From Eledone cirrhosa (Eukaryota), in assembly GCA_964016885.1 (NCBI GenBank), contig OZ024743.1:298964001-299028000 (forward strand): DNA of 64,000 bases. The letters run 5' to 3'. The notes under the pieces were generated by a model. The model made no database searches, was not told the DNA's origin, and worked only from the letters and a program-made list of their open reading frames with translations. Shown piece after piece: positions 769 to 44,874 of this stretch. Positions within the stretch are counted from its first letter, which is position 1. Each line of letters begins with the position of its first letter. Position numbers and translations under genes: made by a program.

Positions 769-1006
769 GTTGTCTTGTTTGATCGATGGTTGATGTGACC
801 GTTAGTGTTGAGGTATGACTGAAGTCGGAAAAACGATTTCCCCAATTCATTGGTATATTTAACACATGTAAAACTCTTTTGGTTACTCACTTGAATGTTT
901 CATTGTCCGGTGTATCCCCTCCATTCGGTTTGTTAACTTTTCCTCTTTTTTTTCCCTCTTTCCTTTTTCGTATTTCTTCCTCTCTCACTATTTTTTCTTT
1001 TCTTTC

Positions 1007-1120
1007 GCTCATGGCCTTTTGATCGATAAAAGGCCTTGGGCGTACTGCTGATCGCTTTCGATGTCCTGTCTTAAGCGCCGAAACATCTATGATGAGCAGT
1101 TAACAGCTGATGAAGGGGTT
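1007..1120 (+). ncRNA. Candidate non-circularly permuted, pseudoknotted hammerhead ribozyme (copy A)
   Basis: GATGTC 1060-1065 (GUC triplet) pairs with GAAACATC 1080-1087 (helix III); CTGT 1066-1069 pairs with ACAG 1103-1106 directly before CTGATGA 1107-1113 (helix I); extra helices GGCGT/GCGCC, ACTGCT/AGCAGT and hairpin GGCCTTTT/AAAAGGCC. Confidence 0.6.
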
Positions 1121-1171
1121 CTTCTCTTGTTTCGTCCATATTACCATCTTAACCTATATATATATATATAT

Positions 1172-2942: not shown

Positions 2943-3008
<66 letters not shown>

Positions 3009-3009
3009 T

Positions 3010-3190
3010 TATACTTTGGGAGGGTCATGTTGCCAATAAGAAACACACGCGAATAAGAAACACATATGCCAATAAGAAACACACGCTTTCACTCCAATTT
3101 ATTATGAATTTATAATTTAATTCATAATAAATTGGAGTGAAACAACTGGTGCGTGTGTTTCTTATTGGCAACATGACCCTCCCAAAGTAT
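3010..3190. repeat. Fold-back palindrome between (TA)n tracts
   Basis: Outer arms atactttgggagggtcatgttgccaataagaaacacacgc and its reverse complement; inner hairpin tttcactccaatttattatgaatt / aattcataataaattggagtgaaa. Confidence 0.9.
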
Positions 3191-3310: not shown

Positions 3311-6300
3311 AGTATATGTTGGTTGTATACCAACACCTCAGTATGCAGATTGGAGCACTCGACGAAGTGCGCAGGTTGGTTTGGTTACTCCGGAGTAATA
3401 TAAAATAAACTAAAATAAATAAGTCAAATATTTAAAATTTGGCTTCGTTTATTACTGCTATATATATTTCGGTGACAACAATATTTGGCTGTGACCTCTT
3501 CAGGCAGTTCGAATTAGTGTGGTAGAGACGAGTACACGTGTTGTTGAGGTGTTTGACTTTGTCAATACTCTGATATGCCCCGTTCCTTGTTGGGTTGTTA
3601 TTTCACTGAGGAACTGTAATCATATGAATTTCAACAAACGAATTTCGGCGTCAGAGGACATCCTCTCCTCCCATTGGTCAGTTGTGAGAACATTCCTTAG
3701 TCGAAAGTCTATAGAATTCGTCTGAGGCGAGGCAATCTGTAGTGGTTGTTCTTGTTATTGTTAAGTACATCTGATCTCTACTCTTATGTTGGTAGTGGTC
3801 TGGTGTTGTAGTCAGCTAAAAAAAATGATAAAATGATAAAAATGATAAAATGGTAAGAGAATAAAATAAGATAATAAAATAAAATAAGATAATCAAATAA
3901 AATGTTGTGTGTTATAACCAATCTCAAAGGTAGAAAAATTTGTAAGATCTACGCCTTCCATTGGTCAGCTGTGAGAGCATTCCTCAGTCAACAGACTATA
4001 GACATTCTTTCTGGGGTGAGGCTATCTTTAGTGTTTGTTTTTGCTATTGTTAAGTACATTTAGCCCTACCCTTCTTTTGCTAGTGGTGTTGGTGCTGCGG
4101 TCAGCCTAGGTCTTGCTGCTGATGATTTTAGAAGTATCTGTGTGTGGTTGCATCCATCCTGCCACCATTTCTCGTGGTGGTGGTGGTGGTTGGGGGGTGG
4201 GGGGTTGTGTCATGCATATGAATAAATAAAAGGCAATAAAATGAAGAAAATAGAAAATAAATGAAAAGTAAGAAAATAAAGATTCAAATGAATTAAAATA
4301 AAATGTGTGTGTGTTATAACCAATCTCAAAGTTATAAAGATGTGCTGCGGTCAGCCTAGGTCTTGCTGGTGCTGATTTTAGAAGTATCTGTGTGTGGTTG
4401 CATCCATCGTGCCACCATTTATCGTGGTGGTGGTGGTGGGGTGGGGGTGGGGTATAAAGATGTTGGCCAAATTAGAAAGGCTGTGTCAAAATCAATCTCT
4501 AGGCTATCATGGTGTCTGCTCAGCCTGGATGGGTCCCTATGGCTTGAGGGGGAGTTCCCATCCTATGATGTTGTTACTGCCCATATAGCTTGAGGGAGGT
4601 CCGGCCAAGAGGTGTCTACATGTTCTGGAGAAGTCCCTATAGCTTGAGGGGAGTTCACATCTCAGTGTGTTGTTACTGTCCATATAGCTTGAGGAAGGTC
4701 CCGGCCCTGAGGTGTCTACATGTCCCGAAGAAGTCAGTTCTGAGGTTTATCAGGCGGCTTCCACCTCTTAGTATCTCGAGCGTCTCGCTCAGACATAGTT
4801 TGCATATGCCAGATCCCCCTTTATCGGATGGTACTTTCATGATTATGGACCAGGCCAGAGAGTACGGGATCCTGTCCAGCTTAAGCTTCCAGATCAGGTC
4901 GGAAAGAGCCATACTTTTCCTTTTGACCTCCTTATTTAAGGAATGGCGATGATTAAACCAACGGTCTTTAAAGCACGTTGATGTGGCTCCTATGTAGATG
5001 TGTTCTTCCTAAGGTATTCATTACTAAGGGGGCATGATTCGGGGTTTCTGCAGTTGCAGAGGGTGGTCGACTTCTGCGTGCCTAGTGTGAGGTTCCCGTT
5101 ACGTGTTACATGGTGTCTTCCCCCGGGCCCGGTGGGGGGTCCCCGGGTCTGTTTGAGTTTCTTTGGTGGGCACTGGGTCCACCCTTCTCTCCTTCCACAT
5201 GGTTCTGCCGGGTGCTTATATTGCCATCTTCTGGTTGCGTGTGGTTTTTAAGCCTACTCCTGTTGATGCTAGCTATGTGTTGGGCCAGATTTCTCGCGGT
5301 GGAATACGAGAGCTTCACAGTGTGTCTGTTGAAGATCTTGTGGTATTTATGGTCCCTCGGGAAGCATTTATCAAGTGCTTCAAAGAATGATCGGGCCAAG
5401 TTGTTCTTTAGGGCCGCTGAGTAGGGTGGGTTGTACCACGTAATTTTTCTGCGTCTACTCATATATGGGTGGGTTGAGGGCGTCGTGAGTTGTTGGAGAG
5501 TTGCTGGGTTGCTGGTGGTTCCTGCATTGTTGCTTCCCCTTTGGGCGCTATGGGTGTTGCTATCTTCTCGGCCCGAATATGTGGGGTGGTTGTTGCCCGC
5601 GCTGGGAGATCCACGGTGGGGTGGTCCTCTGTTACCCCTCCTCTTGTCCTGCGGTTGGGGTCGTCGGACCCGGGGTGGTTAGTATCACCCCTGAGACTGC
5701 TACTCGTATTGGGTTTCAAACCATGGTTAAGCGTACTCGTCACCATCGCCCGTGTGGTGGTTGTCGGGCTCATGGTGCTTATTTGTTTCTGTTCTGCCTG
5801 TATTGTTAGGGTTCGCCCCTTCCCAGACAACGCGGGTGGGGGTGTCCGTAGGGCCATCCCCATCCCGGCGCCTCGGATTATATGTTATATTTTGGCCATG
5901 TGCTGCCTTATTTAGAGCAGTGTTGTCATATTCCGCGTTGCTATCGAAGATTTCCTTATTTGCGGACAGGCTGGAGATCCTGTCGGAGACACTCTTCACC
6001 ACGGCCTTGGTTATGGATCTAGGGTGGTTTGATTTGGTGTTAATATACACAAGAATCTCGTTGGGCTTCTGGTAGGAGTAGTATTGCTCGGTGTTCAGGT
6101 TTAGGGTGCTGTCTAGGAAGCTAACTACCTTTCTATTTGGGTCTAGTTCGATACTGAGCCCCTGGTTCTTAAAGAAATGGCGAATACACCTCTTCATTTT
6201 CTCCCTCATAATGGTGCTGTGGTCATATACTGTGAAGAGAGCAATATAATCCGCCGCCCAGGCAGGGGATTTCATCTTGATTTACCCTGGATGAGATCAA

Positions 6301-6921: not shown

Positions 6922-8530
6922 GGGGTGTGGGGGAGGGGGAGAGGGAGATCAACGGTGTGGGGAGTGGAGGGAGTGTAGTGTACTGGTGTGTGTGCGTGTT
7001 TGGATGAGTGTGTGTGTGGTGAAGGGGTGTTAGTATACTGGTGGTGGGGAAAGAGTTGAATGCGGGTGTGTTAGTGGGGGTCAGTGGTGGTAGGGTGTGT
7101 AGAGTGCGTTGTGTAAGTGGGTGTGGGTGGGTGTGTGTTGGTGGGGTCAGGGGATGTTAGTGGTATTAGTTGTGGGGTGGTTGGAGTGGATGTGTGGGTG
7201 AGGGTTAGTGGTGGTAGTAGGGTGTATGGATAGTGTGTGTATATATGTACAGCTGGGTATGTGCGTGATAGGCGGAGGGTGGGGATGTTAGTATTGTTAG
7301 TTGGGGGAGGGTGGCCGGGTGGGTGGAGGTGGGCGGTGAAAAGGAGGAGTGTGTTAGTGGTGTTAGTGGGGGATATGTGTGTGTTGGGGGGGGGGGGGGC
7401 AGGGCGGTCGAATGCTAAAAGAATATGGGTGGGGAGTTAAGGCCGGGTAGGAGTGTGGGTCTGTAGGGTGAAGATGGTGCATTGTTCGACCGTGAGGCTG
7501 GTGGCTGGTGTTCCGTGGCATTGGAGTAGGCCACAGACTGTGACGTGGTGAGCGGAATGTCCAGGAGAGCCAAAGTGGCGGGTGATGGGGGAACTCCTGC
7601 CGAGACGAATATCCCGGAGGTGTTCAGTGAAACGGTCCGCCAGGCGACGTCCAGTCTGTCCGACGTATGTTGCGCTGCACTCCATGCATCGAAGACGATA
7701 GACTAGGTTCGAGGAGGTGCAGCTGAAGGCGTGCCGGACAGAGAGAGAGTGGCCGTTGGGACCCTGATAGGTGGTGGTGTTGGTGATGTGGGGGAAGGTT
7801 TTGCAACGAGGCCTGGAACAGGGAAGGGAACCGGGGGGGCGTGGGGGGTGTAGGGAGCTGTGGACGAGGAGGGTGCGGAGATTGCGTGCGCGTTTGAAGG
7901 AGGGGAGGGTGGGGATGGGAAGATGTGGGAGGTGGAGGCGTCGCACTGGAAGCGGAGGAAGAGGCGGAGGATGGTGGGGTGGAGGATTAGGGGGTTGGGG
8001 TTGGTGATGGGGAAGGGGAGACGGTGAGGGGTGTGGGTGGGGGGTAGGGGATGAGGTTGGTGGAGCGGTGGACAGCACGAGAGCGAGTGAGTGAGGGCGA
8101 TGTGGACGAGGGGGGGGGGGGTAAACCTCTGCGGATGAAAAGGCTGACTAGGGAAAGGGCCTGGGACTCAAAGTCAGCATCTCGGCTGCAGAGGCGGCGG
8201 ATCCTGAGGAGTTGGGAGTAGGGAATAGAGTGTTTAATGTGGGTAGGGTGGGAGGAGGTGACGTCGAGGTAGGAGTGGGAGTCGGTGAGTTTGAAGAAGG
8301 CGGAGGTAACGAGGGAATGGTGGGAGGGGTCGATGGCGACGTAGATGTCTAAGAAGTGGACGTGGGTGGTGGAGATAGAGGTGGGGAAGTGGAGGGAGGG
8401 GTGGAAGGAGCAGAAGAAGGAGAGAAAGGAGTCGAGTTCTTCTCGGGTGAGGGTCGTGGCTCCGATACAGTCGTCGATGTAACGACCGTACAGTTCGGGC
8501 GTGGGGCCGGTGTACCGGGCAAAGATTTGA
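6510..8530 (-). mobile_element. Second Penelope-like retroelement fragment (Neptune-like), frameshifted
   Basis: ORF 7987-8640 LYGRYIDDCIG RT motif, HFLDI, SSHPTHIKHSIPYSQLLRIRRLCS; ORF 7437-8078 CSRPRCKT, FSCTSSNLVYRLRC..C..YVGQTGRRLADRFTEH (GIY-YIG); C/A-rich 3' region. Confidence 0.9.
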
Positions 8531-8899
8531 GCTATAAATATATATATATATATAAATGTGTGTGTGTATATACATGAATATATTGATATAAGCATCCAAA
8601 CACACATAGATACATTTATATATATATCCGATGTATGCATATATAGTTACGTACATACACACACAACATCCCTATACTAATAAACTGTATTCAGTAAAAA
8701 GTGAAAGAATTTCGATAAAATGTGCCTGCAGCTTAATTCCTCTTACGTCTATAAATGTCAAATATTAAATTAAATTTAAATTTATATTGTAGTGTACTAA
8801 TCAAATATAGAGCAGCACTTGTAATAAATTGATTTATGTTGTTTTGCGGTGTGTCCTACGTAATTTCGGCATGAGACTTGACGGTGTATTAATTGGGAC

Positions 8900-18862: not shown

Positions 18863-18968
18863 CTATCCATCATCAGTGGTCTACTAGCCATCATAGGTAT
18901 TTCTTCGCATTAAAGACCAGATACCTCAGGCTAGCGCGAACAATAACTAAAGTAAGTTATTGGGATAA
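18863..18968 (-). ncRNA. Candidate non-circularly permuted hammerhead ribozyme (copy B, most complete)
   Basis: Minus strand: TTATCC-CAATAACT..AGTTATTG-TTCGCG-CTAGCC-tga-GGTATC^TGGTCT-ttaa-TGCGAA-GAAATACC-tatgat-GGCTAG-t-AGACCA-CTGATGA-t-GGATAG; each capitalised stem block has a complementary partner. Confidence 0.65.
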
Positions 18969-19202: not shown

Positions 19203-19284
19203 TTTTATCCCAATAACTCAGGTATCTGGTCTTTAATGCGAAGAAATACCTATGATGGCTAGTAGACCACTGATGATGGATAAA
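19203..19284 (+). ncRNA. Inverted, internally deleted duplicate of permuted HHR copy B
   Basis: GGTATC 19221-19226, TGGTCT, GAAATACC 19243-19250, AGACCA, CTGATGA 19270-19276 retained; upstream TTCGCG-CTAGCC strands deleted. Confidence 0.5.
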
Positions 19285-20464: not shown

Positions 20465-20506
20465 GAATCTTAATGTTTCTGATACTAGCCTTTCATCAGA
20501 GGATAC
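20465..20506 (-). ncRNA. Degenerate minimal type I HHR
   Basis: Minus strand: GTATCCT-CTGATGA-aaggctagtatca-GAAA-ca-TT^AAGATTC; core intact, helices II and III eroded. Confidence 0.4.
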
Positions 20507-23828: not shown

Positions 23829-23878
23829 TCTTGTCTGATGATCCTCTGATAAACAGGCGAAACTCCAGAGTAACAAGA
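23829..23878 (+). ncRNA. Minimal type I hammerhead ribozyme
   Basis: TCTTGT-CTGATGA-t-CCT..AGG-c-GAAA-CTCCAGAG-TA^ACAAGA; perfect 6-bp helix I, GUA triplet, near-palindromic helix III. Confidence 0.88.
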
Positions 23879-30699: not shown

Positions 30700-31151
30700 T
30701 ATATATATATAAAACAGTACAGAGAAGTACGGAATACATCGGCATCGGGATGGTGTCTGCATTTTGTGCTTATAAAAAAAAATTCGTCGTAGATTACCAG
30801 GGTTTTTTTCCGTGCGAAGAAAATAAATACTTTATCGTGAAATAAATATTTTTGTTTATATTTTGTTATTGTGTATGCAAAAATGCTATATATTTACCCT
30901 TATCGAGCCTCGTGAAATAAATACGTTTGTTTATATTTTGTTATTGTGTATGCAAAAATATCTGTACACGAATATATAATTATATTTGTTTACTGTCCCT
31001 CTTTCTCCACCCAATTCGCTCTGTCGCAATAACTTATTTTAGTTATTGCTCGCACTGATTTTGAGGTATCTGGTCTTTAATGCGAATAAATACCGATGAT
31101 AGTCAGAAGATTACTGATGATGGACAGTCCCGTTTCTCATTCTATTTTTCA

Positions 31152-43559: not shown

Positions 43560-43604
43560 AACGATGTACTAGTTTCAAGCTTGTTAGCTATCATCAGCAC
43601 CGTT
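43560..43604 (-). ncRNA. Minimal type I HHR, unit 1
   Basis: Minus strand: AACGGTG-CTGATGA-t-AGCT-aaca-AGCT-t-GAAA-CTAG-TA^CATCGTT; 7-bp helix I, palindromic helix III. Confidence 0.9.
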
Positions 43605-44031
43605 TACCCATCTGCCAGATAATTGAACGTTCGAAAGTATATACTTTCCTTATGAAAATTAACGGCTGAGCAGCCTAATTTGCATATTGAGTGAGTTAAA
43701 TCGGTCAGGCATACCGAAAACGATAAATTGAAACAAAATGAAAACGAAATTTCATTTCTCACTCTTAGTATGGCACTTACTTAAATGTAAGTATGCATGT
43801 ATACGTACATACATATATGTATACAGACGTACAGTAGCATGCACATATATATATATATATACATATATACATACATATGCATACAGGTACACATACATAT
43901 ATGCACGTATCAGTTTAGCGGCGCTTATTATAACGTCGCTTTGTTCGTTTGTAAACAAACTGAACAGCCTGAATTTATGCCATACGGTGTTAAGGCAACC
44001 ACGTCACCTTTTTGTTCAACACTGACACAGG

Positions 44032-44076
44032 AACGATGTACTAGTTTCAAGCTTGTTAGCTATCATCAGCACCGTT
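44032..44076 (-). ncRNA. Minimal type I HHR, unit 2
   Basis: Identical to the unit 1 motif. Confidence 0.9.
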
Positions 44077-44492
44077 TACCCATCTGCCAGATAGTTGGAC
44101 GTTCGAAAGTATATACTTTCCTTATGAAAATTAACGGCTGAGCAGCCTAATTTGCATATTGAGTGAGTTAAATCGGTCAGGCATACCGAAAACGATAAAT
44201 TGAAACGAAATTTCATTTCTCACTCTTAGTATGGCACTTACTTAAATGTAAGTATGCATGTATACGTACATACATATATGTATACAGACGTACAGTAGCA
44301 TGCACACATATATATATATATACATATATACATACATATGCATACAGGTACACATACATATATGCACGTATCAGTTTAGCGGCGCTTATTATAACGTCGC
44401 TTTGTTCGTTTGTAAACAAACTGAACAGCCTGAATTTATGCCATACGGTGTTAAGGCAACCACGTCACCTTTTTGTTCAACACTGACACAGG

Positions 44493-44537
44493 AACGATGT
44501 ACTAGTTTCAAGCTTGTTAGCTATCATCAGCACCGTT
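44493..44537 (-). ncRNA. Minimal type I HHR, unit 3
   Basis: Identical to the unit 1 motif. Confidence 0.9.
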
Positions 44538-44829: not shown

Positions 44830-44874
44830 AACGGTACTGATGATAGCTAACAAGCTTGAAACTAGTACATCGTT
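44830..44874 (+). ncRNA. Minimal type I HHR, inverted unit
   Basis: AACGGTA-CTGATGA..GAAA-CTAG-TA^CATCGTT; G to A change breaks the core-proximal helix I pair. Confidence 0.8.

Follow-up and report, generated by a model that had tools for sequence, protein, structure and literature searches.

The window analysed here, i.e., the whole 64,000-nt stretch of Eledone cirrhosa DNA, carries at 1007–1120 a cluster of short motifs that an earlier note had read as a divergent copy of a permuted hammerhead, and this raises the question of whether a self-cleaving RNA is encoded at the locus, how it would fold and which mobile element it would serve. The GUC triplet (1063–1065, + strand), the GAAA (1080–1083, providing G12-A13-A14-A15.1), the CUGAUGA core (1107–1113, +) and the linkers named in that note are all present on direct reading of the sequence. 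Along the RNA, the cleavage block is followed by the GAAA block and then by the CUGAUGA block (S-G-C, a non-circular order). Block S (1060–1070, +) comprises one strand of stem III (1060–1064), C17 (1065) and one strand of stem I (1066–1070, with 1070 mutated); block G (1075–1087, +) comprises a strand of helix Y (1075–1079), the GAAA and the second strand of stem III (1083–1087); and block C (1102–1117, +) comprises the second strand of stem I (1102–1106), the CUGAUGA and a strand of helix X (1114–1117). Stem III (1060–1064/1083–1087) together with stem I (1066–1070/1102–1106) sets the predicted cut between 1065 and 1066. A short, conserved linker leads from stem I to helix Y (1071–1074, +), and an unpaired TGAT (1090–1093, +), invariant in 14 of 14 aligned copies, is a probable tertiary contact. 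An Rfam scan of the window gave no match at gathering thresholds, and a reading of 1007–1120 as a classic type I hammerhead was rejected, as there is no GAAA within 35 nt 3' of 1113.

The defining feature of a hammerhead that these repeats do not show is a direct stem II, in which the strand following A9 would pair with the one preceding G12. Across 11 representatives, direct pairing of the strand after CUGAUGA with the strand before GAAA was possible in 32.7% of cells, and three registers of such a stem gave only 13–19 of 45 pairs. Its place is taken by helices X, Z and Y. Helix X joins the strand after CUGAUGA to the 5'-most strand (X', 1006–1009, +; partner 1114–1117), with 1007 mutated in the window copy, and helix Y joins the strand before GAAA to another upstream strand (Y', 1039–1043, +; partner 1075–1079), which substitutes for the 5' strand of stem II. 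Hairpin Z (1010–1038, +) abuts X' and Y' without any unpaired linker, and in the family consensuses X, Z and Y adjoin with 0–1 unpaired bases. Directly after Y comes P4, in which P4' (1044–1049, +) pairs with the strand preceding stem I (1095–1100). The imperfect helix that had been reported after CUGAUGA does contain a real lesion (at 1007), but its register was wrong, since the conserved helix is 1006–1009/1114–1117 and is perfect in the consensus. Rather than a weak stem II, this helix is one arm of the conserved junction found in its place, a point overlooked in the earlier note.

Of the 363 cells that the six-helix model defines in the 11 representatives outside family A, 94.8% are paired, and 13 of its 33 pairs vary on both sides, such changes being present in all helices except III; P4 is 98.5% paired and shows two-sided changes in five of its six pairs. 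None of 500 shuffles reached the pairing or covariation score of the model and slid controls gave 25–51%, where it should be considered that the 11 representatives are related, so that the shuffle counts overstate support and are not probabilities. Family A was misaligned by MAFFT; it was excluded from these statistics and handled via anchored offsets. Over nine families (family consensuses, two of them single copies), pairing was found in 45/45 (I), 44/45 (III), 36/36 (X), 43/45 (Y), 45/45 (P4) and 61/63 (Z) cases, with cross-family control means of 0.54–0.91 for the helices. CUGAUGA, GAAA, U16.1-A15.1 and an H17 other than G are kept in 9/9 family consensuses or single representatives, and the NUH triplets across families are GUC, GUU, AUC and AUA. 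The topology appears to be the strand circle of types SGC and CSG opened between A9 and 10.1, with the core, X, Z and Y meeting, in the presumed three-dimensional arrangement, as a four-way junction in place of stem II.

As had been claimed, the stems of family A diverge from those of family B, with both-side differences in 3/5 (I), 2/5 (III), 3/4 (X), 5/5 (Y), 3/5 (P4) and 3/7 (Z) pairs, the counts for X and Y depending on one-base anchoring. The compensatory changes and the selection on structure deduced from this divergence hold across the repeat families, but not for the window copy, which is decayed; similarly, the statement that all pairings are kept applies to the family A consensus and not to the window copy. 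The latter differs from the consensus at nine positions, two of which break pairs (1007 in the middle of helix X and 1070 in the last pair of stem I); its core is intact and substitutions in Y and P4 retain pairing. Of the 28 family A copies, just 4 retain the core together with every pair. For the window copy, nested folding yields a minimum-energy structure that is not strongly favoured (z −1.76) and in which X' takes part in a competing pairing elsewhere. The copy is most readily understood as an insertion in decay, whose ribozyme may be weak or dead.

We compared this layout with the permuted hammerheads described by Eckert et al. (2023; PMC10085705). In that study, the six-permutation scheme assumes that block C is never interrupted and requires a contiguous stem II, types SGC and CSG cleave in vitro, and the linker between stems I and II in type SGC is typically 3 nt. 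The repeats described here resemble type SGC (the HRIMA-1 motif and its variants) and type CSG of that source in core bases, cyclic strand order, the short linker and the extra helix between stems I and II. Their S-G-C block order is that of type SGC, their stem I-to-stem II linker measures 4–5 nt, and the helix tying together the other sides of stems I and II is present as P4, the equivalent of the stem I/stem II interaction helix of type SGC. In the types of Eckert et al., block C is unbroken (CUGAnGA followed by its own stem II strand) and stem II is direct, whereas in these repeats the chain breaks after A9, and X plus Z close it. The split-block-C form would thus share the SGC/CSG strand circle but lack the unbroken block C, which would place it outside the published six-permutation scheme. 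Moreover, their examples are metatranscriptome contigs, while more than 11,000 pattern matches occur here in one animal genome. The literature searched, mostly comprising papers available without subscription together with passages of PMC3088659, contains no hammerhead with a split stem II and no permuted hammerhead in Naiads.

A genome search with 765–1155, as proposed in the earlier note, recovered the repeat family (1,451 candidates, of which 40 were scored and gave 45 matches, almost all beginning at 881 or beyond) but no coding parent. The fragment carrying the motif, given as about 385 bp, turned out to be shorter: family A spans only 881–1154 (+), so about 275 bp, as a 5'-truncated copy of a unit of about 632 bp that ends at one of the two usual 3' ends of the family. 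It is followed by the (TA)n target microsatellite (1155–1172), a junction type common to most copies compared. The 100 bases at 763–862, between (TA)n and the family A fragment, are unlike any other sequence compared. The window holds further copies, namely a family B copy at 18864–18967 (−) with the same layout, an AUC triplet and an intact core, a second family B copy at 19205–19282 (+), its inverted partner, in which most of Z, Y' and P4' is lost, and a family C copy at 31022–31126 (+) with the same layout and a changed G12, which is probably dead. A long fold-back element between (TA)n runs (3006–3189) is one of many palindromic insertions in the genome.

The pattern GAAA-N6-TGAT-N13-CTGATGA has 11,230 matches in the 3.0-Gb genome and its reversed control has 6; the copies examined include most of the first 100 places among the pattern matches listed. 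The carriers are non-coding partial tandems of 450–700 bp units in (TA)n, with one ribozyme motif per unit, the unit measuring 632 bp in family A and 575 bp in family B, and the motifs of other families being spaced about 450–640 bp apart. Insertions comprise anything from part of one unit up to three units, their 5' parts are often inverted, and their 3' ends lie at two places, about 90 and 130 nt (90–135 nt) past the predicted cut, after which (TA)n follows. Family B is young (about 95% identity). These observations support the proposal that a permuted hammerhead-like RNA stands at the 3' end of Penelope-like (PLE) insertions into (TA)n.

If the RNA cut itself, a trace of cutting could be expected among the 5' ends of the insertions. 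In family A, 7 of the 13 long copies reaching +16 end 0–15 nt past the predicted cut, while 0.85 were expected (P about 6e-6, or 0.0016 with a larger background rate); this test covered 23 long insertions whose 5' end lies at most 80 nt past the upstream predicted cut or before it, 12 shorter ones being excluded, and it was chosen after seeing the pattern and made on best-scoring matches with hand-corrected 5' ends. Two further junctions, a template jump (L161) and a fold-back (L068), lie at the predicted cut itself. Family B showed no pile-up of 5' ends at the cut (2/12, P 0.39), and of the 96 copies in a position-ordered set, 8 have their end there (6 scripted and 2 reassigned by eye), with P ranging from 0.03 to 0.22 depending on the background. 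Most copies read through the predicted cut, as is expected for uncut 3' copies or for re-joined circles. Additionally, a second cluster of 5' ends was observed in families A and B at +66 to +78, about 15–25 nt past the 3' edge of the ribozyme; it coincides with the query start and may partly be a selection effect.

Full-length parents with a reverse transcriptase (RT) and GIY-YIG in the E. cirrhosa genome, also suggested in the earlier note, were not recovered: the PLE open reading frame (ORF) typical of Naiads, with an N-terminal GIY-YIG and a C-terminal RT upstream of the 3' region, is joined to the unit in 0 of 231 distinct copies (218 with 1.4 kb and 68 with 3 kb upstream), and the nearest candidate is a different element. 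ORF neighbours were inspected at L009/L111, L039, L096, L103, L204, L219 and L240 and proved to be separate or inverted, other ORF-near copies being judged by distance and strand only. A PLE linker fragment beside family A in L009, which had the look of a parent, stems from a different PLE family that has a 3' end of its own and lacks the motif; in L096, L103 and L204, the PLE ORFs next to the copies are insertions in their own right; and the inverted RT in L039, which by eye matches the same other PLE family as the L009 fragment, occurs at 1 of 30 family B loci. No parent was found in DNA contigs from sequencing runs compared with family B, and Pfam gave only sub-threshold matches for six nearby ORFs. 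Within the window, broken PLE-like RT plus GIY-YIG frames lie at 5106–6281 (−) and 7437–8646 (−), with a sub-threshold Pfam match to GIY-YIG. Elsewhere in the genome, an abundant PLE family (L112–L140, 3,131 candidates) has no hammerhead core recognised by eye in its 3' region, and, at L204:2630–2730, a nearly whole PLE with a C-terminal GIY-YIG ends in a short hairpin followed by GAAAC, with no CUGANGA; this 3' end is possibly a variant-core hammerhead.

A protein search of the genome returned 149 decayed Naiad-like matches resembling Octopus Naiads. The E. cirrhosa genome lacks the motif in its exact Octopus-Naiad form, RT-motif patterns hit only 3 + 3 places (old remnants or chance), and the motif was found within 1.5 kb downstream of none of 30 old Naiad remnants, a flank that is maybe too short for some. 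Young motif families exist in the genome although its Naiads are old.

The link of the repeats to a coding element comes instead from published Naiad consensus sequences (Craig et al., 2021; PMC8557442), and not from the E. cirrhosa copies. According to that study, Naiads target (TA)n and contain no canonical hammerhead, and their "core" and "half core" matches are left unexplained. Examined by eye, at least 9 of the 54 published consensuses in its supplement, from four phyla, carry the X-Z-Y-P4-S-G-C layout in the 3' region. By the same inspection of these consensuses, Naiad_Obim and Naiad_Ovul share the layout, the N6/TGAT/N13 spacing and a Z loop identical to that of family B; three Acropora Naiads, Naiad_Plae and Naiad-2_Movir are further carriers; and so are one Clytia Naiad and one arthropod Naiad, both assigned without headers. 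At least 8 of the 54, from nematodes and an arachnid, show by eye a plain type CSG with direct stem II; type CSG, seen here at the ends of nematode and arachnid Naiads (File S5), had previously been described, in the literature consulted, from only two sequences. The repeats and the Naiads of PMC8557442, as portrayed there, have in common the (TA)n targets, partial tandems and 5' inversions. Unlike these Naiads, the repeats have no ORF, and the genome's own Naiad remnants have no recognised motif.

Taken together, these data lead us to postulate, with good though not full confidence, that RNAs of the active parents contain a self-cleaving, non-circular hammerhead opened at A9/10.1, a Naiad-type PLE 3'-end ribozyme carried on retrozyme-like units. 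The observed basis of this explanation is the core, the helices, the covariation, the copy number and the insertion pattern, together with the Naiad layout recognised by eye. The RNA would be ordered X'-Z-Y'-P4'-S-G-P4-C-X, with Y' pairing to the strand before GAAA and X clamping both ends. Read-through or tandem transcripts could fold the junction and would be cut after the NUH triplet. About 20 pairs, in X, Y, P4 and stem III, would hold the two products together and should favour re-ligation of the monomer into a circle. The templates would be either cut at the upstream copy or re-joined as circles. The PLE protein would prime in the tail 90–130 nt downstream and copy the RNA into a nicked (TA)n site (cf. 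PMC11167929), some PLE reverse transcriptase presumably acting as the partner that mobilises the non-coding units.

It is improbable, in our opinion, that the fold, derived from a hammerhead, cuts negligibly or not at all and is kept as a signal near the 3' tail at which the PLE protein binds or primes. Such a signal would agree with the copies that run through the predicted cut, with the 3' ends at a fixed 90–135 nt past it, with the finding that a PLE starts reverse transcription inside its own RNA (PMC11167929) and with the poor in vitro cleavage of PLE hammerheads described in PMC4209133; however, although stems have turned over between families, all catalytic positions have been retained and the NUH rule still holds, and the 5' ends of family A pile up at the cut. 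We attach somewhat less weight still to an ordinary type SGC with a very short or one-pair stem II, in which X and Z would be accessory or inhibitory, or to a fold between two tandem units. Positions 10.1 and 11.1 can indeed pair in 7 of the 11 representatives outside family A, with a two-sided change at column pair 68/103, a pairing that would amount to moving the same junction by one step; against a short stem II, the other four direct pairs mostly fail, 10.1/11.1 cannot pair in family A, and X, Z and Y abut almost without unpaired bases. As for a fold between units, PLE hammerheads often act as dimers according to PMC4209133, but a dimer supplies the same strands and does not restore stem II.

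That the motif arose by chance, or is a fold-back artefact of a genome rich in repeats, is barely credible. The genome is full of fold-back insertions and the window has no Rfam match, as such an origin would predict; nevertheless, chance is effectively refuted by the pattern counts (11,230 versus 6) and by covariation in six mutually crossing or nested helices, and the layout recurs in other phyla among the published consensuses available. Returning to the self-cleaving hammerhead opened at A9/10.1, we lean, by a modest degree, towards the broader view that it represents a seventh natural layout that is active, is the missing ribozyme of Naiads in several animal phyla (type CSG taking this role in others) and drives a large class of retrozyme-like RNAs that re-ligate without a host ligase. 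On this seventh-layout reading, the cut ends are held by four helices and could therefore be re-ligated into circles with no such enzyme.

Two known systems are close to these repeats. Animal non-LTR retrozymes (Cervera and de la Pena, 2020; PMC7229834; Li et al., 2026, 10.64898/2026.07.22.740005) are similar in being non-coding tandem units with one hammerhead each, in being probable hitch-hikers on PLEs, and in having copies continuous across the cut site. Those retrozymes carry type I hammerheads in units of about 220–350 bp that form up to long multimers, whereas here the hammerhead is permuted and not of type I, the units measure 450–700 bp, an insertion holds 1–3 units, and circular RNA is presumed. 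Self-circularisation of type I retrozymes amounts to 1–3% (PMC7229834). The second system, described by Cervera and de la Pena (2014; PMC4209133), consists of minimal type I hammerheads in PLE pseudo-LTRs. These also lie near the 3' end of the insertion, and an extra base after A9, in several families, is a further point in common. They differ in being of the circular type: their stem II is direct, and their stem III is weak and needs dimers, while stem III here is a full helix of 5 pairs within the unit.

A covarying form that breaks block C would extend what the hammerhead core is known to tolerate and would offer many natural variants for structural work. Furthermore, the reported absence of hammerheads from Naiads has been cited in favour of the view that these ribozymes may be no more than parasites of PLEs; should permuted hammerheads prove to be kept by Naiads across phyla, self-cleavage would look like a general part of the PLE cycle. 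Given that Rfam missed the motif in the window, it is probably under-counted in invertebrate genomes.

Motifs of the classic order were also seen in the window. A hammerhead-like motif of this kind (CUGAUGA, short stem II, GAAA) occurs as three tandem copies, about 465 bp apart, and one inverted copy, the positions being 43573–44530 (−), 44837–44861 (+) and 39897 (−); it looks like an ordinary type I motif of PLEs or retrozymes. Single CUGAUGA...GAAA motifs at the ends of (TA)n-bounded fragments (23835–23862, +, and 20476–20499, −) are probably minimal type I hammerheads of other PLE families.
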